Source of the DNA: a virus
Reading direction: 5' to 3' (one strand)
Length of the DNA: 64,000 nt
IMG/VR virus record: IMGVR_UViG_3300020147_000065
Location: 3,617-67,616 of that record
The position numbers and the translations under genes are program-made. This document shows, one piece after another, positions 1 through 46,297 of the stretch. Numbering within the stretch: position 1 is the first letter of the stretch; each line of letters starts with the position of its first letter. The notes below the pieces were generated by a model, which was not told the origin of the DNA, did no database searches, and saw only the letters and a program-made list of their open reading frames with translations.

Positions 1-1
1 G

Positions 2-193
2 GTAAATCCGTGGAATGACCCCGAAGGCGAGGGTAAAATCTTTCAGTGGAAAAAGACGGCTTCTTTGCGTCGTGCTCACTTTTGGGCAAAGCTCAAATTC
101 GCAAAAGAGTTCGACCCTGAGACTCACGAACTCGTTTTTGAAGATAGAGCTTTACAGGCTCGTGTAAACAGACTATTAAGACAAGGCGATTAA
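2..193 (+). CDS. 3' end of hypothetical protein (partial, runs in from window edge)
   Basis: Open frame VNPWNDPEGEGK...RLLRQGD ending TAA at 191-193. Confidence 0.6.
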   Translation, partial: VNPWNDPEGEGKIFQWKKTASLRRAHFWAKLKFAKEFDPETHELVFEDRALQARVNRLLRQGD

Positions 194-195
194 TA

Positions 196-216
196 GTCTG
201 CCCCCCCCCTTGCGCA
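196..216 (+). repeat. Left copy of inverted repeat GTCTG-C9-T-TGCGCA
   Basis: Reverse complement of 4011-4033 is GTCTG-C9-TCG-TGCGCA: 15 bp perfect plus TGCGCA after a 2-nt indel. Confidence 0.85.
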
Positions 217-238
217 CCAACCTCGACTACGATATAAT
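210..238 (+). promoter_or_regulatory. sigma70-type promoter, probably giving a leaderless mRNA
   Basis: TTGCGC-N17-TATAAT; ATG at 246 lies 7 nt after the -10 box. Confidence 0.6.
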
Positions 239-245
239 TTATTCC

Positions 246-800
246 ATGAGCGAACAAAAGACCACTAACTTTAAGGCCGGTGAGGACGTAATTGTTTACA
301 GCGATTTCCTCAACCAAAGGCGACCACTGGGAAAAGCCATGCTCGACGAGCGTTTAGGCGATTACCCCACAAAGAACCAATGGGCACTCGCACAGTGGCG
401 AGTGCGATTCTATGACGAACGCGGCAACTTGGAAACAGACGACGATAAAAAGCCTGTCTTTTCTACCATGCCGATTCTTGAAGTTGGCAAGCCAAACGAG
501 AATCGCCCACAATCTGAGGACTATTCGCAATATGGAGCGAAGCCCGAAGCTGACGAAACTGGCGAAGTTGTTGAAAAGAAAAAGCCGGAGAAGAAAGCAG
601 CCCCATCAACCGGCAGTCGTGGACGTGGACGCCCCGAAGTCCCAATGAATGAAATCAAGGCCCGTAACATTGTGCGACAACTCAAAGATAAAAAGCGCGA
701 TGGGCGACTTGATGAAGCTGTGGACTACCTTTTAAATGAGTGTCCAAAGGCCGCAAAATTCGTAGAAAAATACCTTGAATACCTTGACGGCAGCTTCTAA
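246..800 (+). CDS. Hypothetical early protein with RGRGRP (AT-hook-like) motif
   Basis: ORF track 210..800, start reassigned to ATG 246; charged protein. Confidence 0.75.
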   Translation: MSEQKTTNFKAGEDVIVYSDFLNQRRPLGKAMLDERLGDYPTKNQWALAQWRVRFYDERGNLETDDDKKPVFSTMPILEVGKPNENRPQSEDYSQYGAKPEADETGEVVEKKKPEKKAAPSTGSRGRGRPEVPMNEIKARNIVRQLKDKKRDGRLDEAVDYLLNECPKAAKFVEKYLEYLDGSF

Positions 801-812
801 TCTTGGTATAAT
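784..812 (+). promoter_or_regulatory. sigma70-type promoter for rIIA
   Basis: TTGACG-N17-TATAAT, then RBS TTAGGAGAAAACA-ATG. Confidence 0.8.
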
Positions 813-848
813 TTAATTGTCACATTGAAAGGAATTTAGGAGAAAACA

Positions 849-3020
849 ATGAGTATTCCCATCGCTGAAAAAGAGATTGTTGTGCTGTCCAACATGGACT
901 TTGAGAGTGCCGAAATGGGCATTGCAGAAGAAGATGTGCCGACTATCATCGCTATTCTGCGCGACAAACTTTATCGCAACAAAGAACGTGCAATCGTGCG
1001 CGAATATAGCACCAATGCGCGGGACGCAATGATTGAGTGCGATAATGGTAGTAATCCGTTTGAGGTTTGGCTACCCACGCGGTTAGACCCTGTTTTCAAA
1101 GTGCGCGACTATGGCACAGGTTTATCGGAAACTGCAATTAACCAAATCTTTCGTTTCTTGGGTAAGTCCACGAAGCGCGACAGCAATTTGGTAAACGGTC
1201 AGCTTGGCATCGGTGCGAAGTCCGGTCTTGCTCTTGCGAACCAGTTTAACGTAACGTCCTATGTGGATGGACAAGTGACCTTTTACGTTGTTTTGAATGA
1301 CCCATCGCGCAAAGGTCGCATTGATAAAATTGCAGGGCCATTACCTACTGATGAACCTAACGGCGTTTTAATCGAAGTGCCTATCCCTGCTGCCAGCATC
1401 GAAAAAATGCACCAAGAGGCTTCGTTTGTTTACAAGTATTTCGATTTGAAACCAACGATTCACGGTTTAGACGAAAGCAAATATCCTTTAACCCGTCCTA
1501 AACCAGTGTTGGAAGGTAAGACTTGGCGAATTGTGGGCGGCGAATCGGTTGCCATTATGGGCAACGTGGCCTATCCTATCGGTTCTGACTTCATCGTGCC
1601 GGAAGTTCACGGTGAAGAAGGCGAAAAGTGGAAGCAGTTTTTGAGTGCCGGTGTTGAGATTGACTTTCCTATCGGCTCAATCGAATTTGCCCCATCCCGC
1701 GAAGAACTGAGCTACAACGAACATACTATCAATGTTTTAATTGATACAATCAAGTCGGCTATCAAGGAAGCTGCCGACCTGATTACTGACAAACTGAAAA
1801 ACGCGCCTAACCGTTGGGAAGCCATGTGTTTAGTTTCAGCGTTGCAAGGTGAGTTAGGTGAGTTTGGCCGTAATCTCAAATCTGTTATTGGTAAAATCCA
1901 GTGGCAAGGAAAAGAGGTAGGCAATACAATTCACGTTGGCTATAATCACAATGCCGCAACTTCGGGTTGGATGGTGCGCGAGTATCAGAACAACACCTAT
2001 ACAAACCGTTTCTCTCACACCGGCAATCCTTCAAGCCTTTATGCTTCGCATAAAACACTCTTGATTGAGATTGACGATAAGAACGGCAAAGCGCAACCGG
2101 CGAAGATGAAGTATTACTGTGAGCAGAACGGCTATGAGCGTGTATATTTGCTCTCTTTCACTTCGGCAACTGCGCGGCAACTGTTTTATAAGTCGCACTT
2201 AGAAGATATTCCTGTAATGATGCAAACGGCTTTGCCGAAAGCGCCGCCATCAAGCAGTGGTTCGGGTGGAAGCGGCCCCGTAAACCCAAAGCATAGCTTA
2301 CAGGTATTCACTTTCAACTATTCGACAAGTAGCACCGCAAGCGAATCATGGGAGCAGGAAACCGTTGATGCTGTGAACGGTAAAGGCTACTACGTTGTTA
2401 TTGACCGTTTCAACGTGCAAAAGGAACACGGCACCGAACTTTACCCTAAAGACTACCTTGATACTTTGGAGTTCGCACACAAGTTGCTCGGCTTCAACTG
2501 GAAAAAGGAAACCATTATTGGTGTCAAGCGCAGTTTCTTTGACAATAAGAAACTGGGTAAGAACTGGAAACCGTTGTTTGAATATCTGCGCGATGCTGCT
2601 AAAAAGGTGCTGGAAAAGCAAAAGCAGTTTCAGGTGGCTATTGACTACTCAGAATATATGACGCATAGGGCACAGACGTTTGAGTGCTTTCAAAAAGAGT
2701 TAGTCAATCTACAATATCCTGATGAAGCGATGGGCACTTATTTGGCCGCAGCACAAGAGGCGTATTTCCGCCACGATAAAGTGACGAAGGGCAAGTTAAA
2801 CGAGGCCAAAACCCTGTTTGATAAAATCGGCTACCCGCTTCACTACACTTACACGCCGACTTATTTGTTTTCTGACGGTGCCGAAAAGATTACAGAAAGT
2901 TACCCGCTTATGGGCGTAGTCGGAACGGGTTATTACTCGCATGGCTACGCTCAAAACGTGGAGAAGTTTATCCACTATATCAACTTGTGCGATGCCGAAA
3001 CGGTGTCCAAACGTCTGTAA
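849..3020 (+). CDS. rIIA: rIIA-like protein (N-terminal GHKL/Hsp90-type ATPase)
   Basis: LRDKLYRNKERAIVREYSTNARDA, VRDYGTGLS, STKRDSN..GQLGIGAKS motifs; directly followed by rIIB-like gene. Confidence 0.9.
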   Translation: MSIPIAEKEIVVLSNMDFESAEMGIAEEDVPTIIAILRDKLYRNKERAIVREYSTNARDAMIECDNGSNPFEVWLPTRLDPVFKVRDYGTGLSETAINQIFRFLGKSTKRDSNLVNGQLGIGAKSGLALANQFNVTSYVDGQVTFYVVLNDPSRKGRIDKIAGPLPTDEPNGVLIEVPIPAASIEKMHQEASFVYKYFDLKPTIHGLDESKYPLTRPKPVLEGKTWRIVGGESVAIMGNVAYPIGSDFIVPEVHGEEGEKWKQFLSAGVEIDFPIGSIEFAPSREELSYNEHTINVLIDTIKSAIKEAADLITDKLKNAPNRWEAMCLVSALQGELGEFGRNLKSVIGKIQWQGKEVGNTIHVGYNHNAATSGWMVREYQNNTYTNRFSHTGNPSSLYASHKTLLIEIDDKNGKAQPAKMKYYCEQNGYERVYLLSFTSATARQLFYKSHLEDIPVMMQTALPKAPPSSSGSGGSGPVNPKHSLQVFTFNYSTSSTASESWEQETVDAVNGKGYYVVIDRFNVQKEHGTELYPKDYLDTLEFAHKLLGFNWKKETIIGVKRSFFDNKKLGKNWKPLFEYLRDAAKKVLEKQKQFQVAIDYSEYMTHRAQTFECFQKELVNLQYPDEAMGTYLAAAQEAYFRHDKVTKGKLNEAKTLFDKIGYPLHYTYTPTYLFSDGAEKITESYPLMGVVGTGYYSHGYAQNVEKFIHYINLCDAETVSKRL

Positions 3021-3028
3021 TTAGTAGA

Positions 3029-3066
3029 GGGCTACCCTTGACAGGGTAGCCCGAAACTGGTATAAT
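3029..3066 (+). promoter_or_regulatory. sigma70 promoter with its -35 box in the loop of a perfect 10-bp inverted repeat
   Basis: GGGCTACCCT-TGAC-AGGGTAGCCC; TTGACA(3038)-N17-TATAAT(3061). Confidence 0.85.
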
Positions 3067-3084
3067 TTCAGTTAGGAGAAAACA

Positions 3085-3963
3085 ATGGAACAATTACCTT
3101 GCATCTATTCACCGGATAAATCCGCAACCGTGTTTTTGGGCAGCAAAGCTGTAACGGTTGTGGCCGGACAACCGCACTTCCGCGAAGTGCAGGACGCGAT
3201 TATCGCGCAGGACTGGGAAGCTGTAGCCCGTTTGGTGGACGTTATCACTTCGATTAAAGCCTATTTAGTTAAAGACGGCGATTTCGAGATTTCCCGCGAA
3301 GAAATAAAATACCGCAACGAACCTGTTAAGGGTGTTATCGCTGACCGTATTTTGAGCTTCATGGAAAAGGGTTATCCTTCGGCTCCGCTTATCGAATTTC
3401 TGCGTAATTTAATGAGCAATCCGTCTTTCAACTCGCGTAATCAGCTTTACACGTTCTTAGAGCGTTGGAATCTGCCTATTACACCAAACGGCAACTTCTT
3501 GGCTTACAAAGCCGTTCGCAATGACTACATGAGCATTGCTTCTGACCGCAATACCGGCGAACACGTTGATAACTCGATTGGTCGCGTCGTAGTTATGGAC
3601 AGGGCAAAGATTGACGATAACCCGAAAAATCACTGCTCTGCCGGTTTACACGCCGGAGCCTTACAATACGTCCGTTGGTATGGTGGCATTTCTCACGGTG
3701 GAGCGATTGAAGGCGGAAACCGCGCAATCATCGTAGAGATTAACCCTGCTGACGTGGTTAGCGTTCCTAACGACCATGACTGCCAAAAGATGCGCGTCTG
3801 CAAGTATAAGGTGATTGGTGACTACATTGGCGAATTGCCTACCGATTACACCGACGCTGCCGTTTATGACGGTTATGAGGACGGTGACGAGGGCGACAGC
3901 TACGACGAGGACGATTATTGTCCTGATTGTGGCGAACCTTACGAAATCTGCAACTGTGACTAA
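3085..3963 (+). CDS. rIIB: rIIB-like protein
   Basis: FLRNLMSNPS..QLYTFLE..LPITPNGNFLAYKAV, CSAGLHAG, INPADVVSVPND..KMRVCKY. Confidence 0.9.
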   Translation: MEQLPCIYSPDKSATVFLGSKAVTVVAGQPHFREVQDAIIAQDWEAVARLVDVITSIKAYLVKDGDFEISREEIKYRNEPVKGVIADRILSFMEKGYPSAPLIEFLRNLMSNPSFNSRNQLYTFLERWNLPITPNGNFLAYKAVRNDYMSIASDRNTGEHVDNSIGRVVVMDRAKIDDNPKNHCSAGLHAGALQYVRWYGGISHGGAIEGGNRAIIVEINPADVVSVPNDHDCQKMRVCKYKVIGDYIGELPTDYTDAAVYDGYEDGDEGDSYDEDDYCPDCGEPYEICNCD

Positions 3964-3984
3964 ATTCCTGTGTGACAAGAAACT

Positions 3985-4009
3985 GGGGAGCCTTCGGGCT
4001 TCCCTTTTT
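3985..4009 (+). terminator. Rho-independent terminator
   Basis: GGGGAGCC-TTCG-GGCTTCCC followed by TTTTT. Confidence 0.85.
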
Positions 4010-4010
4010 C

Positions 4011-4033
4011 TGCGCACGAGGGGGGGGGCAGAC
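4011..4033 (-). repeat. Right copy of inverted repeat (TGCGCA-CGA-G9-CAGAC)
   Basis: Inverted match to 196-216. Confidence 0.85.
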
Positions 4034-4162
4034 AGGAAAATGCAAACACACCACAATACTCTAAATAAACTACCCCACATTACTTTTTCAACTATTTAGC
4101 CCCAAAACATTGGAAGATGACGTTGCCGGGTAAACCGGACAAAAATAAAAAAGAGAAATACG

Positions 4163-4630
4163 ATGGCGAGACAACTATATCTGGTCTGTGACCAATGCAA
4201 ACGAAAGAGCCTGGAATTTCAAGCGATCAACTGGATCGAGACGCGTTTAGCGGGGATTAATGCTATTACCACTGATATGGCACCCGTGGATGGTTTGTTC
4301 TGTAGTAGTGATTGTGTTGTGCGTTATTTTATCGCCAACCACGGGGCTAAGGCTACGAACCCATTCGATGACGAAGACGGTATCACAGAAGTTGAAAAGG
4401 AAAAGGCCGCTACGCGTGAGGCTGCGCGGCCTAACCCTGTATTCGGCCCATTATTAAAGGTTGAGCATGGGGTAGCTTCTACTTCTGATGTTCCTCCCGA
4501 ACTACAGAAGCGTTACAATGCTGACGGTACCCCAGCCGAAACAGGAGCAGGTTATGCTTTCCCATCCGGTGGTAAGCCAACGGGCGCTAACCTCGATAAA
4601 CAACTCAATCCAAAGGACTGGTTAGAATGA
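4163..4630 (+). CDS. Small Zn-finger protein (CxxC...W...FCSxxC)
   Basis: CDQC and FCSSDC motifs. Confidence 0.7.
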   Translation: MARQLYLVCDQCKRKSLEFQAINWIETRLAGINAITTDMAPVDGLFCSSDCVVRYFIANHGAKATNPFDDEDGITEVEKEKAATREAARPNPVFGPLLKVEHGVASTSDVPPELQKRYNADGTPAETGAGYAFPSGGKPTGANLDKQLNPKDWLE

Positions 4631-4833
4631 GTGAGCTAAGCGAATCCGCGCAATATAAATTGGGCCGGCATCATGCTTTAATTAAATCGGCCCCACGTTC
4701 TGCTAACAAAAGTTACATGGAGGGCTACAATAGTGTCCCTGTTTACGTAGCCCCACCATTCAAACCCAAACCAATTGAACCAGACAAAGACGGGGAGTAC
4801 CCCGGACTATTTAGCCACTGGCTGGAGGATTAA
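4627..4833 (+). CDS. Hypothetical protein, paralog of 5285..5470
   Basis: GRHHAL...SYMEGY vs GRYDAL...EYLKGF; ATGA overlap with upstream gene. Confidence 0.65.
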   Translation: MSELSESAQYKLGRHHALIKSAPRSANKSYMEGYNSVPVYVAPPFKPKPIEPDKDGEYPGLFSHWLED

Positions 4834-5270
4834 TGAACGAAGATACATATCCATTGAGAGCTAAGATTATTGATACGTTTCATGGAGCTAATGGAACAAT
4901 CCACGGGAATGGACAACATCAGGTAACCCGTGACGACATGTATGCCCGGTTAAAAGAGCGGGGCTTTACTATTTACACGGTCCGCGGTTTCATGCCGCGG
5001 ACCTACGAGGTAGGCGGAACAACGGATGAAGTAACTGCGAATGTTGCCATCAAGGGAAACCTTGAGAAACAATATTTTACAGTAAACGAAGCCAGAGAAT
5101 TCCAGGCATTCGTGGCCAGTAACTATCCGCCCTACGTCTACTTCAACGATGATGGTCCCTGGACAAAATACCCATCGAGTGATACAAAGGGAGTCAACCC
5201 CTGGCACAAACAGTATGTACCGGTCACTTATATGGAAGAAGGCGTGGCCGGGGAAACCGGTCAGAAATAA
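4833..5270 (+). CDS. Hypothetical protein, paralog of 5457..5885
   Basis: MYARLKERGF..V.GF...VYF...KYPSSD vs MEERLKKEGF..VEGF...VYF...KYPSED. Confidence 0.7.
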   Translation: MNEDTYPLRAKIIDTFHGANGTIHGNGQHQVTRDDMYARLKERGFTIYTVRGFMPRTYEVGGTTDEVTANVAIKGNLEKQYFTVNEAREFQAFVASNYPPYVYFNDDGPWTKYPSSDTKGVNPWHKQYVPVTYMEEGVAGETGQK

Positions 5271-5284
5271 AAAGGAAAGATACA

Positions 5285-5470
5285 ATGGGTGAAAGTAAAG
5301 ACAGAGAGAACAAAGCAATTGATTCAGGTCGTTATGATGCTTTACAGGGTTTTATGACACCACGCAACACTGATCCCGAATACCTCAAGGGATTTCGAGA
5401 GATTCGTGATGGAGCTACAACAGCCGGAGAAGCTTTAAAGAAAGAGAGACAATCTAATGGGACAATTTGA
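5285..5470 (+). CDS. Hypothetical protein, paralog of 4627..4833
   Basis: ORF with AAGGA RBS. Confidence 0.65.
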   Translation: MGESKDRENKAIDSGRYDALQGFMTPRNTDPEYLKGFREIRDGATTAGEALKKERQSNGTI

Positions 5471-5885
5471 TGATTCGATTTTAATAAATCCAGGGATCAA
5501 CCCTTACGCTGAATATAATGGCCATCGTGTGAGATTTTCTACGATGGAAGAACGTCTCAAGAAAGAAGGCTTCTTTGTGGAAGAGGTCGAGGGGTTCACC
5601 GACGAGAACATGCAACCGCTGCCAGGTGATTCCGGTATGTGGAAGACCAAACGTAAGGTGGCTGTTGATCCGATGGCCACAGTCTATTGTGGACCCTTCA
5701 CTGAGAATACCATCGGAGCTTACGAATTCCATACGCGCAGATGGTACTGGATCGAGGTCTACTTCAGTCGTGTTGCCGACAAGTATCCCAGCGAGGATGT
5801 TGGTAACCAATCGTGGGAAGAGCCTCATGATCTAACCCTCACAGGGAAAGAAGTCCTCGTGGAAGAAACTCCCCAGGACGCGTAA
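5457..5885 (+). CDS. Hypothetical protein, paralog of 4833..5270
   Basis: ORF track; similarity to 4833..5270. Confidence 0.7.
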   Translation: MGQFDDSILINPGINPYAEYNGHRVRFSTMEERLKKEGFFVEEVEGFTDENMQPLPGDSGMWKTKRKVAVDPMATVYCGPFTENTIGAYEFHTRRWYWIEVYFSRVADKYPSEDVGNQSWEEPHDLTLTGKEVLVEETPQDA

Positions 5886-5948
5886 TTTATTGGCGAATAC
5901 GTAGTATTCCCTTGGAAGAGGGGTTGGCGGCACCATCAGGATAGGAAT

Positions 5949-6122
5949 ATGAACGAAATTGACTTTTTTATGTTCGTTGACAATCTCGATGATGTCTCTG
6001 ACTTCCTCTTTTCGAAGAAATTATGGAAGAGGGCGCGGCGGCGTAAGCAGGATAGGAATAGGGATAAGTTATACATACATAGGGATAACTCGCCATCCGC
6101 GGGTGATAAAATCCAAAATTAA
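5949..6122 (+). CDS. Small hypothetical protein (57 aa, MNEIDFFMFVDNLDD...)
   Basis: Manually translated; AGGA upstream; below the ORF-track cut-off. Confidence 0.45.
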   Translation: MNEIDFFMFVDNLDDVSDFLFSKKLWKRARRRKQDRNRDKLYIHRDNSPSAGDKIQN

Positions 6123-6239
6123 TGTCGGAAATATCCTATTATGTCGGAAATAGGCGAAACCCAGTTTTCGAACCTCTCCCTATTAATAAGGAATTACTTC
6201 TCACCGGCAGCAGTAGGTCAACAGACCGAATGCTGCCTC

Positions 6240-6268
6240 TTGACAGATACATCTACATGCAGTATAAT
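6240..6268 (+). promoter_or_regulatory. sigma70 consensus promoter
   Basis: TTGACA-N17-TATAAT. Confidence 0.85.
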
Positions 6269-6298
6269 TATCCATGACGATGATTTAAGGATAGAATT

Positions 6299-6484
6299 AT
6301 GTTCGCTGTAGACTTACATCTGGACGAGGAGGGTTTCCCTTATGTCGGTACTTTTGATCTTGACCCCGATCTCATTTACTGGCACGAGGTTCTCCCGAAC
6401 GATTTCATGCGCGTTCGGCTTTCAGGAGCCGAACGTACCCTCGTGTTAAAGCATGATTCTTTATGGAAGAGATATTTTAAATGA
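6299..6484 (+). CDS. Small hypothetical protein
   Basis: ORF with AAGGA RBS downstream of consensus promoter. Confidence 0.65.
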   Translation: MFAVDLHLDEEGFPYVGTFDLDPDLIYWHEVLPNDFMRVRLSGAERTLVLKHDSLWKRYFK

Positions 6485-6502
6485 AAGGGAGGGTGATTAC
6501 CC

Positions 6503-6655
6503 GTGGATAGCAGAGTAAGACGAGCCTACGTATTGTACCATGACGGACAATTCAGGATGAACTGCATGTTGAACCTCGGATTAGGTAAGCACAAGCAGTT
6601 GACTCCTCAACTCTTGTGGAAGAAGGCATGGCATGTCGCAAGATTATCTGGTTAA
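6503..6655 (+). CDS. Small hypothetical protein (50 aa, GTG start)
   Basis: GGGAGG RBS; MDSRVRRAYVLYHDG...; followed by hairpin. Confidence 0.55.
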   Translation: MDSRVRRAYVLYHDGQFRMNCMLNLGLGKHKQLTPQLLWKKAWHVARLSG

Positions 6656-6663
6656 TGGAACGT

Positions 6664-6698
6664 AACCACCGGTTATCTCGTATGAGTAGCCGGTGGTT
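6664..6698 (+). terminator. Stem-loop, probable terminator
   Basis: AACCACCGG...CCGGTGGTT inverted repeat. Confidence 0.55.
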
Positions 6699-7175
6699 TC
6701 ACTTTACGGCAAAATCAGGGGGTAATAGCCCTGTGCGCGACAGCAAGGGTCCACTATGGTTACCTTTATGGTATTAGAGGTACCGGGCAGAGCTTTGGAG
6801 AGACAAAGTTACAAATTCGAAATGATCCTGTGAACTCCCTGGAATCCAGCGGAGTTGTTTTTGTCTGATTTTTTGGGTACTTGGGAAAGAGTTGTGTGTT
6901 CTGTTATAGAATATGTAGGTTATGATATGATTTACCCCGTGGATAGCCCAAAAATTGATGATTCCAGAGCAAAAATCGAATGAATTGACTATAATACCAT
7001 GAATAGAAAGAGAAAAAGTAGGGTCAAATCATTGGAAGAAGGCGTTAGCTGGTAAATTTTGTCAAAAATAGGAAGTTAGAATACGAATTTTTTAATAGTG
7101 TGTAGTGAGTTGAGTGGAAAATTGTAAAAATGGGGTGTCTCTCTCGCTTCTATGCCTATTAAATCCCATATTCTC

Positions 7176-17148: not shown

Positions 17149-19230
17149 GTGAGTTCTATAGCCGATCTAGTTTATGTTCCTTTTGCTCTTAAAGAGTTAA
17201 AGGAAGATGTTAATATAACAAACCCTGCTCCTGGTGATACCTTACAACGTAGTGCTGAAGGTAAATGGATAAACACACCTATGGAGCAATTAACTGGTGC
17301 CCAAGGACCGCAAGGTGCTCAGGGATCGGCTGGTGCTCAGGGGCCGCAAGGCTCTGCTGGTGCTCAGGGGCCGCAGGGTTATGAAGGTATAGCTGGAACA
17401 CAGGGGCCGCAAGGCACACAAGGAAGACAAGGCTTTCAAGGTGTGCAGGGTGCAGTTGGTACACAGGGTACTCAGGGTATAGCCGGTGCGCAAGGTGCAA
17501 CTGGTTCACAAGGTACTCAGGGAGTTCAGGGTACTCAGGGTACTCAGGGTACTCAGGGAAGACAAGGATTCCAAGGTGTGCAAGGCACACAAGGAGTACA
17601 GGGTGCCGTAGGTGTACAAGGCCCACAAGGTATAACTGGTTCTCAAGGAGAAACTGGACCACAGGGTACTCAGGGTAGTCGTGGTTATCAAGGATACCAA
17701 GGTTATCAGGGAGCCGCAGGTGCTCAAGGTGTGCAAGGTGCTGTTGGTGTAGCAGGAGATACTGGTCCACAGGGTGCTCAAGGTTCAACTGGTGCGACCG
17801 GAGCGCAAGGTCCACAGGGAACACAGGGTTCTACCGGCGCTCAGGGAACTGCTGGAATTACTGGCCCACAAGGTGTGCAGGGTGCTGCTGGAACACAAGG
17901 TCCACAAGGTTATCAAGGTGCGACCGGGGCCGGAACTCAGGGACCACAAGGTGTGCAAGGTTCTCAGGGTGTTCCCGGTGAAAGCGCGGATATTGGTGCG
18001 CAAGGTCCGCAGGGTGCGACTGGACCACAAGGTGTACAGGGTGCGACTGGACAAGGATTTAACATTGCTAAATCTTATGCATCTGTTGCCGCCCTAACTG
18101 CGGATACTAATCCTTCTGATATACTACCTGGTGAGTTTGCGATTATCTTATCCACGGTTGATGATCCAGACAACTCTAAGTTATATCTCTGGGACGGCGA
18201 AGATTATATTTATACCTCTGATCTTTCGGGTGCGGCAGGTATTACCGGACCACAGGGTACACAGGGAGCTACCGGAGCACAGGGTGTGCAGGGTTCTCAA
18301 GGTGTAGCCGGTGCGACTGGTCCACAAGGGGATGCCGGTGAAGCCGGTGCTGCTGGACCACAGGGTGCAGCGGGGGCACAGGGACCGCAAGGAACTGCTG
18401 GTGCAGCCGGAGAAGCTGGTGAAGCTGGTGCCCAAGGTCCACAAGGATTTCAGGGCGCTGCCGGTGCTCAGGGAGCTACCGGAGCGCAAGGTTCTGCCGG
18501 AGCTACCGGAGCACAGGGACCACAGGGAGACGTTGGTGCTCAAGGATCAACTGGTGCTCAGGGTGCTGCGGGGGCGCAGGGCACACAAGGTGTAGCCGGA
18601 GCGCAGGGCGCAGCCGGAGCCGAAGGTCCGCAAGGTAATCAGGGGGCACAAGGTCCACAAGGTTATCAGGGTAGCCAAGGTGTTGCCGGTGCTCAGGGTC
18701 CGCAGGGAACACAAGGTTATCAGGGACTTACTGGTGAAGGAACACAGGGTCCGCAGGGAACACAGGGTCCGCAAGGCGCGTCAGGTGGAGGAGCAGGTGG
18801 AACGGGTGCGTCCATCTCTGTTGTTCAGAATAGTCATGGTTTCGCGGTTGGCGATGTTGTTCGTTTGAGTGGGTCAGCAACATACACAAAAGCTTTAGCT
18901 GATTCCGCAGCAAACGCTGAAGTAGCGGGTATTGTTTCGGCTGTTGCAGATTCTAACAATTTTACTCTGAGTCTTGTCGGACAGGTAACCGGTCTAACTG
19001 GTCTTTCGGCAGAAACGCTTTACTTTCTGAGTCCAACGGTGGCCGGTGCTATGACATCTACCGAACCAACAGTCACCGGTCAAATTAGTAAACCTGTATT
19101 TTTGGCAGACACAACAACATCAGGTTTTGTTATCACACAAATGCGCGGATACATTATATCAGATACCGGTGGTGCTGTAGGAGGATCATCGGTGGGCGGT
19201 AATATTTATCTGAGTCGCAACTTCATTTAA
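17149..19230 (+). CDS. Collagen-like fibre protein (long Gly-X-Gln tracts)
   Basis: Two long (G-A/P/T/V-Q)n segments separated by a globular insert; C-terminal HGFAVGD domain. Confidence 0.9.
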   Translation: MSSIADLVYVPFALKELKEDVNITNPAPGDTLQRSAEGKWINTPMEQLTGAQGPQGAQGSAGAQGPQGSAGAQGPQGYEGIAGTQGPQGTQGRQGFQGVQGAVGTQGTQGIAGAQGATGSQGTQGVQGTQGTQGTQGRQGFQGVQGTQGVQGAVGVQGPQGITGSQGETGPQGTQGSRGYQGYQGYQGAAGAQGVQGAVGVAGDTGPQGAQGSTGATGAQGPQGTQGSTGAQGTAGITGPQGVQGAAGTQGPQGYQGATGAGTQGPQGVQGSQGVPGESADIGAQGPQGATGPQGVQGATGQGFNIAKSYASVAALTADTNPSDILPGEFAIILSTVDDPDNSKLYLWDGEDYIYTSDLSGAAGITGPQGTQGATGAQGVQGSQGVAGATGPQGDAGEAGAAGPQGAAGAQGPQGTAGAAGEAGEAGAQGPQGFQGAAGAQGATGAQGSAGATGAQGPQGDVGAQGSTGAQGAAGAQGTQGVAGAQGAAGAEGPQGNQGAQGPQGYQGSQGVAGAQGPQGTQGYQGLTGEGTQGPQGTQGPQGASGGGAGGTGASISVVQNSHGFAVGDVVRLSGSATYTKALADSAANAEVAGIVSAVADSNNFTLSLVGQVTGLTGLSAETLYFLSPTVAGAMTSTEPTVTGQISKPVFLADTTTSGFVITQMRGYIISDTGGAVGGSSVGGNIYLSRNFI

Positions 19231-19240
19231 GGTATTTATT

Positions 19241-19636
19241 ATGGCAAATGAACCCAATTTCGTAGCAACACCTCGTAACGCAATAGCACAGGTTAGCGCG
19301 GCAAATACCGCTCGTGATGGCACGGGCACTGTTGTCACAGTTTTTACAGCGGGTGCCTCTGGTTCTCGTATAGATCGCATTACCATCGAGGCTGTGGCAA
19401 CAACAACGGCAGGAATGATTCGTCTTTTTGTTAATGACGGTAGTAATTCCCGTTTATGGCGTGAAGTATCTGTTTCAGCGATTACGCCCAGTGGAACGGT
19501 GGCAACTTTTACAACTGAAATCAACAGTAGTAATAGTGCTTTACCTTTGCTTATTTTACCAAATGGCTACTCGTTACGTGCCTCAACACATAACGCGGAG
19601 ACATTTAATATTATAGCAGAGGGTGGAGATTTTTAA
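19241..19636 (+). CDS. Small beta-rich virion/fibre-associated protein
   Basis: ANTARDGTGT..VFTAGASGSRIDRI...GGDF; context. Confidence 0.6.
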   Translation: MANEPNFVATPRNAIAQVSAANTARDGTGTVVTVFTAGASGSRIDRITIEAVATTTAGMIRLFVNDGSNSRLWREVSVSAITPSGTVATFTTEINSSNSALPLLILPNGYSLRASTHNAETFNIIAEGGDF

Positions 19637-20361
19637 TGAGCAACGGGCTTTTTGGTTTTCCCAGTGGAGCGGCAACTCAAAACAGAGGTTTTACTAAACC
19701 TACCGCGGGTAGTCGTCTGAATCCATCACACAGCTTGGCTTCTGGATTAAGAGCACGTTACCTTTTTAATGAATCGGGTGTAGTAATTCAGGATTATTCG
19801 GCCAACTGTTATCATCTTACACTTTCTGGTGACTGGAAAAGAGTTCAAACTCCAGAAGGTATGGCTGTTAACTTTATTAAAGCGACCGGTAAAAAAGGTA
19901 ATGCGTTCGTTGCAAGTAATCTTGGTATCACCAACACCTTTACGTTGTGGTGTCGCTTCAAAGTAACCGCATTAAATGCGGCTGGTGCGTTAATGAAACT
20001 CGGAGCTAATAATGATGGAATCGGATTTGGTATTGGGGACACCACAATGGATGCAGCAGGTAATAAATTAGTTGCACTTGCTGAAAATGTAGTGTGGCAT
20101 CCAACGACCGTGACCATTACTACGGAGTATTTAAATATCGCCCTTACAGCCAACACAATTTATAACCGCGATGTTATAGCTAAAACCAGTGTTTATTTTT
20201 CTAATCCCGGCAACCTGTTTAGTGTCGGTGGATACACTGCGATTGGTGCAGTAGAACGTTACCTTGATTGCATTGTTCAATCCGTGGGCGTATGGAACAG
20301 AGCTTTAACGGCAAATGAATTGGGGTTATTAGAGAACAACCCATATTGTGATTTTGCATAA
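19636..20361 (+). CDS. LamG/concanavalin-A-like domain protein
   Basis: GLRARYLFNESG..DYSAN, FTLWCRFK, VGVWNRALTANE. Confidence 0.75.
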   Translation: MSNGLFGFPSGAATQNRGFTKPTAGSRLNPSHSLASGLRARYLFNESGVVIQDYSANCYHLTLSGDWKRVQTPEGMAVNFIKATGKKGNAFVASNLGITNTFTLWCRFKVTALNAAGALMKLGANNDGIGFGIGDTTMDAAGNKLVALAENVVWHPTTVTITTEYLNIALTANTIYNRDVIAKTSVYFSNPGNLFSVGGYTAIGAVERYLDCIVQSVGVWNRALTANELGLLENNPYCDFA

Positions 20362-20383
20362 GACTCACGCAGGAGAATGTTAA

Positions 20384-21514
20384 ATGGCAAACAGTGTATT
20401 ACCGGGATTAGCATATCAAGGACCACAGGGTGTTCAGGGTGTTCAGGGTGTTCAGGGAGCACAAGGATACCAGGGAGCACAAGGATACCAGGGAGCTACC
20501 GGATCAGGTGCTCAGGGACCGCAAGGTGTTCAGGGACCACAGGGGGCTGACGGCGGCGGTGGAGGCGGAAGTGGTAGTGGTGACAGCCTTACCATTAATG
20601 TCTCACAGACAGCCCACGGTTTTGCTGTTGGTGATCTTGTAAGACACAACGGAACAACTTATGTAAAAGCACAGGCTGACAGTGCAACAAATGCTAACGT
20701 CGCAGGTATGGTTAAAACTGTAACCGACGCTAATAACTTTGTACTTACATTGCCCGGCTCTTATATAACTGGTTTGTCTGGTCTGACAGCAGGAGAGACA
20801 TACTTTCTCTCACCGTCATCTGCCGGAGCGATGACGGCTACCGAGCCTTCAACAACTGGACAGATAAGAAAAGTTGTTCTCATTGCGACCAGCACAACAG
20901 CCGGTATTCTTCAATCAGACATTGGCTTTTTGTTACAAACAGCAGTAGCTTATGAGACCACGGTTGCTCCCGGTAAATTTAGAACCAGTGGTGCCGTAGT
21001 TCAGTTTGGTATTCCCGGCAGAAGTCCAGCGGCGGCGGCTACAACTTTTGCTTTCACAGCCAACCGAATTTATTATGAACCAATTATGGTAGAAGATACC
21101 ATAACACTTGATAGAATTATCGCTGAGGTTACAACATTAATTACATCTTCCACAATTCGTCTTGGTATTTACAATGCTGACGAAAACTGGCAGCCCACTA
21201 CTCTTGTATTAGATGCTGGAACCATTGATTCTGCCACCACGGGAGTAAAGACAATTACAATCAACCAGATTCTAACTCGTGGACGTTATCTACTTGCGTT
21301 GCATAGTGGACATGCACCAACTGTTCGAGCATTGTTGATGGCTGGTTCAATTACTGGACCAATTGCCCCCGCTGTGGGTACTAACTCCAATATAGTTCAA
21401 CTATATAAAGCAAGTCAGGCGTATGCTGCTTATGCTTCCAGTGGAGTTCAATGGGATACAGCAGTGGCAGCCAACACAGCATTTAGACATGCGGCAATGT
21501 TGAGGTGGACATAA
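20384..21514 (+). CDS. Collagen-like fibre protein 2
   Basis: Short Gly-X-Gln tract plus HGFAVGD domain paralogous to the 17149 C-terminus. Confidence 0.85.
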   Translation: MANSVLPGLAYQGPQGVQGVQGVQGAQGYQGAQGYQGATGSGAQGPQGVQGPQGADGGGGGGSGSGDSLTINVSQTAHGFAVGDLVRHNGTTYVKAQADSATNANVAGMVKTVTDANNFVLTLPGSYITGLSGLTAGETYFLSPSSAGAMTATEPSTTGQIRKVVLIATSTTAGILQSDIGFLLQTAVAYETTVAPGKFRTSGAVVQFGIPGRSPAAAATTFAFTANRIYYEPIMVEDTITLDRIIAEVTTLITSSTIRLGIYNADENWQPTTLVLDAGTIDSATTGVKTITINQILTRGRYLLALHSGHAPTVRALLMAGSITGPIAPAVGTNSNIVQLYKASQAYAAYASSGVQWDTAVAANTAFRHAAMLRWT

Positions 21515-21822
21515 TGAATAAGAGATACAACGAAGAGTATGGAATTGGAGGATTTAATCCTTCTCTTCCTGATAATAATCTTGTGAGTAGGGAAGAAATT
21601 CCCTACTCATGGGAGGAAATTCGAGAATTAAGAGAGCCACTTCTTGTGGAAGCGGATATTCTTATTAATCGTGCAACTGATTTGTCACTCACCGCGGGTA
21701 ATGTGAATGCAGATTATCTGAAAGCTTTAAGCGAATATCGCATGGCCCTAAGAGACATCACAAAAACATACGAAAATCCCAACGATGTTGAGTGGCCCGT
21801 TAAGCCGGAGGTAATAGTTTAA
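21514..21822 (+). CDS. Phage tail fibre assembly chaperone
   Basis: WEEIRELREPLLVEAD...YRMALRDIT...VEWPVKP. Confidence 0.85.
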   Translation: MNKRYNEEYGIGGFNPSLPDNNLVSREEIPYSWEEIRELREPLLVEADILINRATDLSLTAGNVNADYLKALSEYRMALRDITKTYENPNDVEWPVKPEVIV

Positions 21823-22673
21823 TGGCAACTACCGCACTAACACAATCAAATATACGCGGACCACAGGGAACACAAGGCTTTCAGGGTAATCAGGGAACAC
21901 AAGGTGTGCAAGGCACCCAAGGATTTCAAGGTAACCAAGGATTTCAAGGATTCCAAGGTAACCAAGGCACTCAGGGAGTGCAGGGACCACAACCTTCTTT
22001 AAACGGCACCTCTACTACTTCCATATTAATGGGTAACGGCACGAAAGTGTTCACAACTCAAGCTAACCTTGCATGGAGTAATGGATATAGAATTCGAGTA
22101 TCACAAACTTCTGATCCATCAGCAAACTACATGGAAGGAGTTGTCTCTTCTTATTCCGATACAACATTAACTGTTACAATAGATTATGTTGTAGGAAGCG
22201 GAACACTAAGTGATTGGAGCTTTGCTCTTGCGGGAGAAAGAGGCGCTCAGGGAGCAGCCGGAGCAACAGGAGCACAGGGAAGTGGAGGAGCAGGAACAAT
22301 GTCTCGTGCAAGCGTAGTTGTTACAACGGCTTCACTTGCTGATCTTGCTACTGAAAATGCTGCGCCCACAATTGCAAAGACCGCACTATTACTTTCCGTC
22401 CAAACTGATCGTGCGGCATGGGTAAGAGTTTATAATTCGGCGGCGGCTCGGACAGCCGACGCCTCACGTTCAATTGCTGACGACCCCGTGGCAAGCAGTG
22501 GAGTAGTAGCTGAAATAATTACCACCGGAGCCGAGACAATCAATCTTGCACCACCATATGAAATTTATAGCGCAGAGGCGGTCCCCTCTGCTAATCTATC
22601 TGTCGCTATTCAGAACAGAAGTGGTAGCACATCAACGGTCCAAGTAACATTCACCTATCTGGTATTGGAGTAA
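21822..22673 (+). CDS. Collagen-like fibre protein 3
   Basis: NIRGPQG(T/F/N)Q tract; GTSTTSI..G.GTKVFTTQ...YMEGVVSSY domain. Confidence 0.8.
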   Translation: MATTALTQSNIRGPQGTQGFQGNQGTQGVQGTQGFQGNQGFQGFQGNQGTQGVQGPQPSLNGTSTTSILMGNGTKVFTTQANLAWSNGYRIRVSQTSDPSANYMEGVVSSYSDTTLTVTIDYVVGSGTLSDWSFALAGERGAQGAAGATGAQGSGGAGTMSRASVVVTTASLADLATENAAPTIAKTALLLSVQTDRAAWVRVYNSAAARTADASRSIADDPVASSGVVAEIITTGAETINLAPPYEIYSAEAVPSANLSVAIQNRSGSTSTVQVTFTYLVLE

Positions 22674-22674
22674 A

Positions 22675-23565
22675 ATGGCAACAGCAAGTAATACACTCAA
22701 CCTGGGTATCTCCACCGACGCGGCGTTTCGTGCTTGGGCATCTGTCATATCTACTCGTCTTGGGGATATGGGACTTGTGAAGTTAGTTATCTCTGGTGAG
22801 ATTGATATGGGTACAGTTACTAAACCAAACCCAAGCACAAGTAACTGGCCGTATGATGGTTTTGAGTCTAAGGGTTTTCAAATCTGGAGACTCGATGATG
22901 CTTTACAAGCAGCATATCCTGTGTATTTAAAAATTGAATATGGTGGTCAGCAAATCAACACTCCCTGGTGGACTGAATATGGTGCCGCTCTTAGACTTAC
23001 ATTAGGTAGAGGTTACAGTGGAACAGATTTAACAAATGCAACTGCAAGTAAGGTCGTTTATAGTTATCCCCATGCATCAACTGAATGTCGTTTTAGCGGC
23101 TCGACTTCTCGATTTGCAGCATTAATCGGTAATATATTTTTCGCATTCGAAAGAATAAAAGATTATGCTGGAAATGATACAGGTATCGGAGCCTCAATCA
23201 TAGGGGATAGTTATCATGCCGTGGATGGCTCCACAGTATATGGCATAGATTACAAATGGCAGATGACTCTATTAAGCTCCGGTAGTAATCCACCAACCGA
23301 AAGTCGGTGGGGAGTTTTGCTTCCAACTACTGCCGATGGTGTGATAAACACAGAGAGTCATGGTTACACTGTCCATCCTTTTACACCGAGACAAGAACAC
23401 GCATTATTAAATGCGCTTGTCTTCTTTACTGGTAACCTTGTTTCTGGAACTGAATATGATATTTCTGTGTCGGGTAAGAGTAGACATTATTTGTTCGTAG
23501 GAGAACATAATTATATTACTACTATACGACCAACTGAAGTATCGCTTGCAATGCGCTGGGAGTAA
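22675..23565 (+). CDS. Hypothetical virion-associated protein
   Basis: ORF track; context. Confidence 0.55.
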   Translation: MATASNTLNLGISTDAAFRAWASVISTRLGDMGLVKLVISGEIDMGTVTKPNPSTSNWPYDGFESKGFQIWRLDDALQAAYPVYLKIEYGGQQINTPWWTEYGAALRLTLGRGYSGTDLTNATASKVVYSYPHASTECRFSGSTSRFAALIGNIFFAFERIKDYAGNDTGIGASIIGDSYHAVDGSTVYGIDYKWQMTLLSSGSNPPTESRWGVLLPTTADGVINTESHGYTVHPFTPRQEHALLNALVFFTGNLVSGTEYDISVSGKSRHYLFVGEHNYITTIRPTEVSLAMRWE

Positions 23566-23567
23566 CT

Positions 23568-24311
23568 ATGATTCCATATATTTTTAATTTTATTCATCTG
23601 GGCGACAAGAAACTTAGCCTCGAAAAAAGAGCTTACATCCAAAGTTTTAAAGACACTAATCCTAATGCAGAGATAAAGGTGTGGTCTAATGCTGATGTTC
23701 AAGCTCTTACATTGCCTGAATCATTCTATAAAGAAGAAGATTTCCGTGCGAAGAGTGACGTTCTTCGTTATTGGATTTTAGCCAACCACGGGGGAATCTA
23801 TTGCGACACGGACGTAATCTCTTTAAATTCATGGGAAGAATGGCTTCAAGGCAAAGAAGTTTTTGTAGCCCAGTATGATGTCGGACGACTTGCACTTACC
23901 AATGCTATCATGGGTGCAGCTCCGGGTAACGCATTCTTTCCAAAACTTGTTGATATGCTACCCGGTGCTGAAGTAATCTTTCGTAATGGTGGTTATCTAC
24001 AGAGAGTCGGTTCTCATTTGATTGACCTTTTGCTTGCTACTGGTAAATACCCCGAAGTCCATCGAATTGAACCGGACAAAACTTGTTCGTTGACACTTGC
24101 AGAAAGAGCCAAGGGTGTTATACCAAATCTCATTAAACTCAAGGAAGAAGGCGCTCTTTGCGTTCACCTTTGGGCAACTGCCGGAGATCAACCAAGTATA
24201 GCTAAAACCTATCCTGCTCTGGCAAATGCTATGTTAAATGCTTTGGGTCATGACCACATATTCTTTGGTGAAGACCCAGACCTTCTACCAGAACCAAGGA
24301 ACAATAAATGA
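23568..24311 (+). CDS. Glycosyltransferase, DXD sugar-binding (GT32/OCH1-like)
   Basis: MIPYIFNFIHLG, KSDVLRYWILANHGGIYCDTD, NAIMGAAPG, VHLW. Confidence 0.9.
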   Translation: MIPYIFNFIHLGDKKLSLEKRAYIQSFKDTNPNAEIKVWSNADVQALTLPESFYKEEDFRAKSDVLRYWILANHGGIYCDTDVISLNSWEEWLQGKEVFVAQYDVGRLALTNAIMGAAPGNAFFPKLVDMLPGAEVIFRNGGYLQRVGSHLIDLLLATGKYPEVHRIEPDKTCSLTLAERAKGVIPNLIKLKEEGALCVHLWATAGDQPSIAKTYPALANAMLNALGHDHIFFGEDPDLLPEPRNNK

Positions 24312-24715
24312 ATGTTAATGTAACCTTTCAGAACACACAAGCATCATATGAGTGGCCGGGTTTTACATGGAGACTTAATAGAGTCACAGGCTCCAGTTGT
24401 GAAGGTTACACCACTGAGGTCGCTGCCACCAGTACTACTCCCAACGGTTTCGCAGTAACATTACCCTCTGGTCTTGCTGCCGCAGACCACGGTACTACTC
24501 AGGTTGCTGTGGTTACCCCGCCAACTTCGGGTGATATTAACTACTATTATTTCCTTGAAGTATGGGCAGCTATTGATTCTGGTTATGGTGATCCAAACTA
24601 TGATCGCTGGATGAACAGTGCATCACCTTTTCAAGTACTCGTTCTTGATAGTGTTGATGCCGGAATGAGGACACGACCAATGAGAGGTGCTGTCTGGCCT
24701 CGTAATATACGTTGA
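24308..24715 (+). CDS. Hypothetical protein
   Basis: ORF track; ATGA-type coupling. Confidence 0.55.
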   Translation: MNVNVTFQNTQASYEWPGFTWRLNRVTGSSCEGYTTEVAATSTTPNGFAVTLPSGLAAADHGTTQVAVVTPPTSGDINYYYFLEVWAAIDSGYGDPNYDRWMNSASPFQVLVLDSVDAGMRTRPMRGAVWPRNIR

Positions 24716-24740
24716 CGAAATGAGGAATTTGTGCTATACT
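24712..24740 (+). promoter_or_regulatory. sigma70-type promoter
   Basis: TTGACG-N17-TATACT. Confidence 0.7.
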
Positions 24741-24770
24741 AATTCCTCATTCCATTTTGATCGGAGTCTT

Positions 24771-26036
24771 ATGTTGTTTTCTATTTTTACCCCCACTAAT
24801 CGCCCGGACTATCTTCTTGAACTATATGAAAGTCTTTTAGCACAAAAGTACACCAACTGGGAGTGGATTATTGTTCCCAACGGTGGTTGTCGTATTCCTG
24901 ATGTGATTCTGGAGAATAAGAAAGTTATTGTGCGTGAACCAGGCGTACCAAATTCTAATATCGGTGCTCTAAAGAGATTTGCGTGTTCCCTTGCCTCTGG
25001 AGACATTCTCGTTGAGGTAGATCATGATGACATGCTTTTACCAAACTGTTTGGATGAATTAAATTACTGGTTCAATAGACCGGAAAATTATGGTTTTGTC
25101 TATTCAGACAATTTAGTTCTCTCTGATAACTTTATACCATTTAATTCCGCATTTGGTTGGACACATGATAAAATTACCCTAAATGATTACAAACAGGGTA
25201 GTGGATTAACTTCAACGGAATGCATTCGAATGCATTCCTTCGAGCCATCCGCGGCATCAATGGCTTTTATATGGTATGCTCCCGACCACGTAAGAGCTTG
25301 GAGAAAAAACGTATATTGGCAGATTGGTGGACATAATGCTGAGATGGATGTATTAGACGATCATGAATTGTTGATACGTACTTATTTGCATACTCCGATG
25401 GCCAAGACAATGAATCCTCTCTACATCTACCGGCATACGGGTCACAACACATCAATGAGTTCTGAAAAGAATGCAAAGATACAGAAAGGTACTGTTGAAT
25501 TATTTCACACCTACGGGTTTGATCTCGTACAACGCGAAGCCGATCTCCGCGGTTTGAGAAAGCTTGATCTTGGTGGTGGATTTAATGCCCCAAGAGGCTA
25601 CGAAACAGTTGATCTCGTTAATGGAGACATTACATGCGACCTGAATGAGCCTTGGCCGTTTGAAGATGGTAGTGTTGGAGTTCTACGTGCCCATCATATC
25701 TTCGAGCATCTAAAGAATCCTTTATTCACAATGCAGGAAGCACATAGAGTACTTGCAGATGGTGGTTGGTTAATGGTTGAAGTGCCATCCACGGATGGTA
25801 GGGGAGCATGGTGTGATCCCACGCATGTTTCTTACTGGAATCAGGTAAGTTTTTTCTACTATACTCGTGCTGAACAAGCGGGGTATATTTATAATGATAC
25901 CGCCAAATTTCAGGAATTCAGATTGGAAACGCGTTATCCAAACCCCTATTTCGAAGCCAATCACATTCCATGCGTAACATTTTGGGGTAGAGCAATAAAA
26001 TCTAATGAGCGACGACCTCATTTAATTCAGGTGTAA
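24771..26036 (+). CDS. GT2 glycosyltransferase fused to class I SAM-methyltransferase domain
   Basis: FSIFTPT, NWEWII, EVDHDD, DDHELL; C-terminal LDLGGG...HIFEH...LADGGWLMVEVP..DPTH. Confidence 0.88.
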   Translation: MLFSIFTPTNRPDYLLELYESLLAQKYTNWEWIIVPNGGCRIPDVILENKKVIVREPGVPNSNIGALKRFACSLASGDILVEVDHDDMLLPNCLDELNYWFNRPENYGFVYSDNLVLSDNFIPFNSAFGWTHDKITLNDYKQGSGLTSTECIRMHSFEPSAASMAFIWYAPDHVRAWRKNVYWQIGGHNAEMDVLDDHELLIRTYLHTPMAKTMNPLYIYRHTGHNTSMSSEKNAKIQKGTVELFHTYGFDLVQREADLRGLRKLDLGGGFNAPRGYETVDLVNGDITCDLNEPWPFEDGSVGVLRAHHIFEHLKNPLFTMQEAHRVLADGGWLMVEVPSTDGRGAWCDPTHVSYWNQVSFFYYTRAEQAGYIYNDTAKFQEFRLETRYPNPYFEANHIPCVTFWGRAIKSNERRPHLIQV

Positions 26037-31898: not shown

Positions 31899-32417
31899 TC
31901 AAGAATAAACATATGCGCGTAATTTTCTTTCGACTTTTTCTCTGGCTCTCCATGAACGAGACTTAACTGTTCCAATAGGTACTTGTAACTTTGCTGCCGT
32001 TTCTTCAACATCCAGATTACCTAAGTAACGTGTAACAAGTATCCGTTGTGAAACAGGACTTAGGGTATCTATTACTTCACCGGCTAAAACTCTTAACTCC
32101 GCAGACTCTACAATCTCATGTGGTAAATCATCAGCAACATCAGTACACGCTGCTATGATTTTATCCATATTCTCACGGTAACGTAGTTTACGTCTGATAA
32201 GATCGCAGCAATAATTCCTTGCTACCGCTTTTACCCATTCACGCATCTTAGTTGTTTCTGTTACTGTATGACGGTTCAACCAACAACGTAACAACACATC
32301 TTGTTCTGCGTCTTCTATGAAAGCAGGTTCATGTTTTAATATATAGCCGAGCATTAAGCGAACCACGGGTCTATAATCTGCGTAGTACGCTTCCATTTCT
32401 GTTAGCGTTTTTTGCAT
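31899..32417 (-). CDS. ECF-type RNA polymerase sigma factor
   Basis: EDAEQDVLLRCW, WVKAVARNYCCDLIRR (region 2); EETAAKLQVPIGTVKSR (region 4). Confidence 0.92.
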   Translation of the reverse strand: MQKTLTEMEAYYADYRPVVRLMLGYILKHEPAFIEDAEQDVLLRCWLNRHTVTETTKMREWVKAVARNYCCDLIRRKLRYRENMDKIIAACTDVADDLPHEIVESAELRVLAGEVIDTLSPVSQRILVTRYLGNLDVEETAAKLQVPIGTVKSRSWRAREKVERKLRAYVYS

Positions 32418-46287: not shown

Positions 46288-46297
46288 CTTGGTTGTA

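Follow-up and report, generated by a model that had tools for sequence, protein, structure and literature searches.

A restriction-site-free rIIA/rIIB block as the last module of a 74-kb depleted array in an uncultured jumbo phage

The window analysed here is a stretch of 64,000 nucleotides of the virus record IMGVR_UViG_3300020147_000065 (bases 3617-67616 of 221,108 bp; a window coordinate is the genome coordinate minus 3616), and the element in question is a three-gene block with rIIA and rIIB, at window 196-4033, which is free of the words GATC, GTAC, CCWGG and GGWCC and is bracketed by an inverted C9/G9 repeat. The block closes a 74-kb arc depleted of restriction sites, of which it is the final module; the 3.8-kb inverted repeat itself is ordinary. 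The reading that we favor, at a probability of about 0.55, is that the block ends an array of separately promoted small genes and tRNAs, that entry into the cell begins with this array, at a fixed genome end close to the terminase genes, and that the array possibly lies in a direct terminal repeat of 75-85 kb. The parts of this reading carry different weights: that the arc is the first-entering early region is, taken by itself, quite probable; that it is duplicated as a direct terminal repeat of that length is an even bet. A preliminary description of the same DNA had already placed purged, first-entering DNA with early rIIA and rIIB genes in or near a long terminal repeat, and to that extent it fits the evidence; its 3.8-kb scale does not, since the depleted DNA is about 20 times as long.

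The depleted arc and its sharp right-hand edge

The first 187 and last 186 bases of the record are identical except for one C in a C-run, and the record is effectively circular, 220,922 bp long and opened at that kind of run. The two copies of the overlap (genome 61 and 220,983) have 11 and 10 C residues, which looks like slippage or sequencing error at runs; contigs of the matching sequencing run X1 break there too. The matching runs carry the label soil metagenome, and no RNA run is listed among them. The arc starts at genome 154.1 kb, runs to 220.9 kb and continues over 1-7.65 kb, 74 kb in all; the core with which it is compared measures 142,750 bp.

A two-change-point fit finds a single depleted segment, with 1.54 versus 7.39 sites per kb, its left edge at 154.2-157.7 kb and its right edge at genome 7478-7778. 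The right edge is sharp, within ~300 bp, and its position establishes the G9 tract as the point at which depletion ends: here the preliminary description had found a true compositional boundary. The words themselves fall into tiers, 24 being avoided in arc and core alike, 13 mainly in the arc and 0 in the core only. The genome-wide tier is made up mostly of classic 6-bp restriction sites plus CTAG, while the arc tier includes GATC, GTAC, CCWGG, GGWCC, AAGCTT, GAATTC and GTTAAC (arc versus core: GTAC 24/168 vs 343/540; GGWCC 4/62 vs 126/141; AAGCTT 2/18 vs 59/67). Depletion of the arc tier persists under codon-preserving shuffles, which rules out codon bias as its cause. Codon use of the arc is shifted from that of the core. 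Early transcription is also ruled out: DNA downstream of 18 selected sigma70-like promoters outside the arc has 8.4 sites per kb, against a core mean of 8.3. Depletion follows position, not gene type. The segment at genome 1-3811 has core-like codons, yet lacks GTAC and GGWCC; the small open reading frames (ORFs) to the right of G9 are site-rich, at 11 per kb.

The features of the block and of its immediate left flank are these:

window 1..4030: right-hand end of the 74-kb depleted early arc (from the change-point fit and zone table)
window 169..200 (+): hairpin without a U-tract, directly before the C-run; source of the GTCTG in the left repeat
window 199..209 (+): TG-C9 boundary element; 95 of the 98 runs are such TG-C(7-11) copies
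window 210..238 (+): sigma70-like promoter TTGCGC-17-TATAAT; ATG 7 nt past the -10 box, predicted leaderless
window 246..800 (+): 184-amino-acid ORF; no Pfam or PHROG match, Atlas leads all under 0.8
window 784..812 (+): promoter-like TTGACG-17-TATAAT ahead of rIIA
window 849..3020 (+): rIIA, 723 amino acids; PHROG 612, E 4e-96
window 3029..3066 (+): hairpin that overlaps a promoter of consensus type, TTGACA-17-TATAAT; geometry PeSL-like (see below), fold z = -4.9
window 3085..3963 (+): rIIB, 292 amino acids; PHROG 609, E 1e-60
window 3985..4010 (+): hairpin with U-tract behind rIIB, resembling an intrinsic terminator
window 4020..4030 (-): final boundary element, in inverted orientation and promoterless; marks the end of depleted DNA

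Much of what had been reported of the block is borne out. The repeat motifs are present at 196-216 and 4011-4033; the first sites beyond the block are GATC at 4225 and 4234, GTAC at 4527, CCWGG at 4210 and GGWCC at 4979, although GAT occurs 53 times and GTA 39 times inside. The gap is beyond chance: when the three block genes were shuffled 1000 times with their codons preserved, GATC averaged 10.6 and GTAC 11.1 (minimum 3 each), whereas the block itself has 0 of either. Arginine codons are of the CGN type (AGR 3 of 55, whereas AGA makes up 3 of 11 in the gene to the left), each gene has one promoter (210-238, 784-812, 3038-3066), and the identities of rIIA and rIIB are upheld by their PHROG matches. 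The motif CCCGTGG is indeed missing from the block, but with 2.4 copies expected its absence lies within chance. With 0 sites the block is the cleanest stretch of its size nearby (P ~0.003 at the mean arc rate, ~0.05 over 19 windows), and its GC content at third codon positions is 0.51, against 0.40 directly to the left.

What does not survive is the notion of a bounded special unit. The left C9 is one of 98 such runs, and the GTCTG beside it forms the 3' arm of the local hairpin at 169-200. The flank match of the C9/G9 pair ties the best among 91 C-run units, yet 3 of 97 neighboring pairs and 73 of all 4753 pairs equal it. Depletion has no left edge at C9 but runs on leftward through the GTAC- and GGWCC-free DNA already mentioned, and a comparison that the preliminary description had itself proposed, with site-free stretches elsewhere, turns up a longer one: a 5.3-kb gap without all four words at genome 177.7-183.1 kb.

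Boundary elements, leaderless cassettes and K repeats

Runs of at least seven C or G number 98 in the arc (154,131 via the origin to 7,644) and 0 in the core, and 95 of the 98 read TG-C(n) on one strand. The usual order of a unit is hairpin, TG-C(7-11), TTG, ~20 nt, a TAnAAT-type box and ATG, with a median spacing of 425 bp (81 units). The hairpin reaches -10 kcal/mol or lower in 75 of 87 units (median -16.6, vs -8.4 for shuffled sequence), and a T-tract lies ahead of the run in just 11 of 88. Promoters of the form TG-C-TTG...-10 number 67 on the plus strand and 2 on the minus strand; because the ATG stands 6-7 nt past the -10 box in 52 of the 67, leaderless mRNAs are predicted. The other units of the arc can be aligned with the one at window 201. 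Three further copies at the arc start (genome 154.1-154.9 kb) are, like the G9 copy, inverted and promoterless, so that the element seems to be functional in either orientation.

The TG-C run is most likely a boundary mark, double-stranded and protein-binding or structural, that can be used in either orientation, and most likely also serves as ~14 bp of shared sequence for the duplication and exchange of cassettes; a role in end processing is rejected. So is one in phase variation through promoter spacing, the run lying upstream of the -35 box. Eight tandem paralogs of ~140 amino acids (38-57% to the first), one per cassette, occupy genome 177.9-182.1 kb in the longest site-free stretch, and the arrangement of one paralog per cassette suggests expansion by whole cassettes. 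Neither this family nor the 184-amino-acid ORF of the block has a family assignment; the structure model of the paralog has a confident N-terminal domain, for which an SH3-like fold is a lead only. As an array, the TG-C9 promoter-boundary motif was found in no other record searched: its promoter pattern had 0 matches in viral_contigs and 19 single ones, none an array, in metagenome_contigs; a shorter C-run pattern had 37 single matches, the 4 promoter-like ones with 1-2 copies per record; and literature searches listed no matching publication on poly-C phage promoters or longer repeats.

The second repeat family, K, is a polar 42-bp sequence with a TGGAAGA-rich start and a GTCA-AAATAAA-rich end. 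Scored leave-one-out with a model built from 13 seeds chosen by eye, 11 copies exceed 20 bits, all on the plus strand, and eight copies lie within 85 bp behind a C/G run. They cluster at genome 158-165.5 kb, at 192-196 kb and at 7.7-9.6 kb; one further copy, at 10.65 kb, is weak. K extends 2-3 kb past the arc; it is absent from the core, the single core match scoring 9.4 bits. K could signal a stop or an end, or it could be a second promoter class. Features to the right of the block are as follows:

window 4033..7135 (+): site-rich zone of small ORFs, 11 sites per kb
window 4111..4152 (+): K repeat, 83 bp past G9
window 5233..5274 (+): K repeat, leave-one-out score 46.6 bits
window 5913..5954 (+): K repeat, 20.8 bits
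window 6024..6065 (+): K repeat, 21.5 bits
window 7033..7150 (+): weak last K (7.3 bits) and purine-to-pyrimidine switch (skew table), non-coding

The site-rich zone is predicted to be the inner end of the terminal repeat beyond its protected part, and 7033..7150 is a candidate for that inner end, placed by the last K and the skew switch. An A-rich stretch followed by TGGGG(G)TGT occurs at both candidate ends, that is, at L007:3480-3570 (genome ~153.5 kb) and window 7119-7150; the left one sits between two hairpins.

Order of entry, terminal redundancy and competing explanations

Positional avoidance of sites is argued in PMC12455610 to require fixed genome ends. Such ends are implied here by the combination of that argument with the terminase genes abutting the arc start (TerL lies at genome 146.2-148.9 kb, ~5 kb away; the capsid gene is at 142.1-143.2 kb). 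The sources compared for first-step-transfer DNA, PMC10644984 and 10.1101/866236, concern T5 and BF23 (Tequintavirus), and the former states that restriction cuts these phages only if their first-transferred DNA contains sites. T5 run as a control shows the extra depletion in its first-step DNA (CCWGG 2/14 vs 40/57). On these grounds the arc is read as first-entering DNA. It shares with T5/BF23 the confinement of extra depletion to one end region, host-type promoters, small genes without known function, and repeats where depleted DNA stops. It differs in length (74 kb here, ~9.6 kb there), in including tRNA, ligase, PARP-like and rIIA/B genes, and in having K repeats interspersed with ORFs, whereas the T5 repeats form one non-coding block; two-step injection is a property of T5 and only predicted here. 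Among 113 and 139 arc-region ORFs there was no Pfam or PHROG match to A1 or A2, no direct comparison having been made.

For the terminal repeat the nearest precedent is the Xanthomonas phage XacN1 (AP018399), with a direct terminal repeat of 65,875 bp according to PMC5852040, where a 170-kb repeat in phage G is also the subject of speculation. The two are of similar size and share an order, ORFans, tRNA cluster (including a CUA-anticodon tRNA) and rIIA/rIIB near the inner end; in XacN1 the latter lie 4-8 kb from the inner end. The XacN1 repeat is proven, however, while the one considered here is inferred, and the capsids are unrelated. The PeSL cassettes of T4-type phages, promoter/stem-loop units numbering ~50 per genome (PMC2839356, PMC4122927), resemble the ~70-95 copies of the present element in repeating an intergenic stem-loop and a sigma70-like promoter ahead of ORFans. 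Here, though, the place of the AT-rich upstream element is taken by a TG-C(7-11) run, most units (52/67) are predicted to be leaderless where the T4-type ones have a Shine-Dalgarno leader, inverted or promoterless copies occur, and the phage is not T4-like; cassette recombination is here only a proposal, indirectly supported by the tandem paralogs. In function, then, the arc resembles a T5 first-step region, in layout an XacN1 repeat and in punctuation the PeSL arrays, and it is a member of none of these. T4 rII counters RexAB (PMC13716836), and the adjacent pair in the block matches the RIIA and RIIB PHROGs; identity is ~30% (closest homolog of rIIA 32%; 28% over 297 amino acids with XacN1 rIIA). 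An anti-Rex role in this phage is putative, and rIIA/B are likely counter-defence genes.

Read depth bears on duplication of the arc. The depths are contig-level values of run X1 for three contigs, none wholly core: 22.6 (all arc), 21.2 (across G9) and 15.2 (75% core), the last contig having been positioned by way of a loose end and exact repeats. They imply a core depth of ~12.8 and an arc/core ratio near 1.8, which is a weak hint only. X1 contigs also break at exact short tandem duplications, at genome 169,284-169,354 (35 bp) and 105,531-105,584 (15-bp unit). A second run, X2, has 24 short contigs, all at least 99% alike. Of the first 21 bins (genome 1-10,500) they cover 19, and of the last 9 just 1. 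In simulations, flat depth gave this pattern in at most 0.3% of trials at this location (1.8% at any location), and a twofold step in up to 24%. The pattern was set aside, since holes among filtered contigs prove nothing, GC content drops from 0.445 to 0.414, and the split was chosen post hoc.

Several observations weigh against first entry of the arc, or against its duplication. A replication gradient fits the three X1 depths (residual sum of squares 0.23) as well as does a step whose end falls at 10-18 kb, 16 kb giving the best fit, and the depth of 21.2 across G9 exceeds what is predicted by a step at G9 (16.8) or at 10.75 kb (18.5). The presumed entering end is not the most depleted, its first 4.6 kb containing 11 GATC (3.7 sites per kb), and the tRNA zone has 3.2 per kb whereas the far-end rII block has 0. 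Two K copies stand 52 nt ahead of a start codon, and K may be merely a second promoter class. No known anti-restriction protein turned up, including in Pfam and PHROG scans of arc-region ORFs. The XacN1 repeat shows no extra depletion relative to 34 kb of its own core (nor any C/G run of at least 7 in 100 kb), with the consequence that the T5 and XacN1 precedents back different halves of the model.

The first of these points is the substance of a rival that we consider improbable but worth stating in full: the arc enters first and has fixed ends, but the terminal repeat is short, and the excess depth is due to intracellular DNA that replicates from an origin near 205 kb. Besides the gradient fit, a run labelled soil metagenome may hold infected cells, and the T5 tRNAs lie outside its repeat. 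The match of gene order with the XacN1 repeat speaks for a long repeat instead, as does the fact that, at the right edge of the arc, two repeat families stop no more than 3 kb apart. Less probable still is that the arc is accessory DNA that has become hyperplastic, its genes having lost their sites during circulation in other phages or hosts, with the order of entry irrelevant. Its genes are mostly ORFans, its codon use differs from that of the core and its depletion is uneven; against this, the conserved rIIA/B are fully purged while ORFans directly to the right of G9 are site-rich, the edge falls within ~300 bp, and the core-like genes at genome 1-3811 are purged as well.

The preliminary description had offered three narrower explanations. 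That the block alone was recently imported from a phage of another host would account for its local cleanness and its third-position GC content; this is very unlikely, since its promoter unit aligns with arc units, other parts of the arc share its codon use, a longer site-free gap exists elsewhere in the arc and there is no close donor (best 32%). A collapsed 3.8-kb terminal repeat with C9 and G9 as symmetric processing signals gains from the flank match and from the reality of the boundary at G9, and is nonetheless scarcely credible given the 97 other runs, the lack of a boundary at C9, the origin of GTCTG in a local hairpin and the position of the terminase genes at the other end of the arc. 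An invertible cassette, suggested by the inverted pair around three genes (RecA is encoded in the record), can be dismissed with similar assurance: an X1 contig from genome 62 to ~18,528 crosses both C9 and G9 with no inversion joint listed (assembled contigs do drop rare variants), no integrase or resolvase family match and no tyrosine or serine recombinase was found in the record, and inversion would not switch the block genes because they carry their own promoters.

Under the favored reading of the arc as early DNA delivered from a fixed end, the course of infection would be as follows. Arc DNA would enter first, from the genome end near the terminase genes, and host RNA polymerase would at once transcribe its cassettes, mostly as leaderless mRNAs. 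The arc would have to function while host restriction enzymes are still active, and would for that reason have lost words that the later-entering core tolerates, with rIIA and rIIB acting as counter-defence in this early phase. G9, together with the K cluster that follows, would signal the end of the unprotected phase, much as the T5 injection stop lies just inside its repeat. A bolder version, to be taken as speculative and rather doubtful as a whole, has a ~300-kb virion genome with a direct terminal repeat of ~78 kb, exceeding the 66 kb of XacN1, 74 kb of it delivered first in stages, the three K clusters acting as pauses or stops, the ~95 TG-C9 elements binding one protein that insulates and later silences, and leaderless single-gene cassettes surviving DNA cutting.

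Gene content of the record and its significance

DNA polymerase, RecA and RNR are encoded in the record, and 36 tRNA calls lie at genome 195.4-216.5 kb, with a tmRNA in the same region (195-216.5 kb); that tmRNA (segment L009:12130-12525, minus strand) has an unusually long predicted tag of 26 codons. One tRNA has a CUA anticodon (L010:7818-7890, amber-suppressor-like) and another, at L010:15374-15447, a UCA anticodon; TAG is still the stop of 18 of 157 longer ORFs. Searches for relatives by rIIA, capsid, capsid alignment or paralog alignment found none in viral_contigs, nor did the capsid alignment in genome_contigs. Capsid homologs of 51-66% identity were found as proteins only. All 50 capsid tblastn matches listed are to phages of Mycobacterium, Gordonia or Arthrobacter (~24-26% in 25 of these rows), with no Demerecviridae (T5-like) and no Rak2- or XacN1-like match among them. 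DNA methyltransferase families PF00145, PF01555, PF02086 and PF05869 have no match in the record, and a search for ArdA found none.

A set of signalling genes unusual for a phage comprises a PAS-PAS-SpoIIE phosphatase (window 49343-50914), GGDEF (L004:3814-4596), CHASE3 (L002:11448-12098), PP2C (L003:16551-17375, minus strand) and a small sigma factor (window 31899-32417, minus strand); named matches of the PAS-phosphatase are spread over several phyla and point to no single host. PARP-like (L010:12574-13887), macrodomain (L010:18872-19447), DUF2828 (L010:15709-17190), Tpt1 (window 59373-59948), RlaP-like (window 44111-44881) and Apyc1-like (window 45376-46371) genes form an ADP-ribose and RNA-repair conflict kit. 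Collagen-repeat fibre genes adjoin two glycosyltransferase clusters (window 17149-26036; L004:14324-16539), which suggests that the virion fibres may be glycosylated. CCCGTGG occurs 137 times genome-wide on both strands (62/75), about once per 1.7 kb (e.g., window 4283, 4339 and 4901), with a G four bases after it in 128 of the 137 (CCCGTGG-N3-G, often WWRGC), and looks like a dispersed protein-binding or self-tag motif, for which it is a candidate.

If the favored reading of the arc is right, the principle known from T5, that only first-entering DNA has to avoid restriction sites, would apply not just to ~10 kb but to one third of a jumbo genome, and would be joined to a terminal repeat of XacN1 size. 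It would then also provide a sequence-only route to placing the ends of uncultured jumbo phage genomes, and ~150 early ORFs, among them the eight-copy family and rIIA/B, would become candidates for counter-defence functions.

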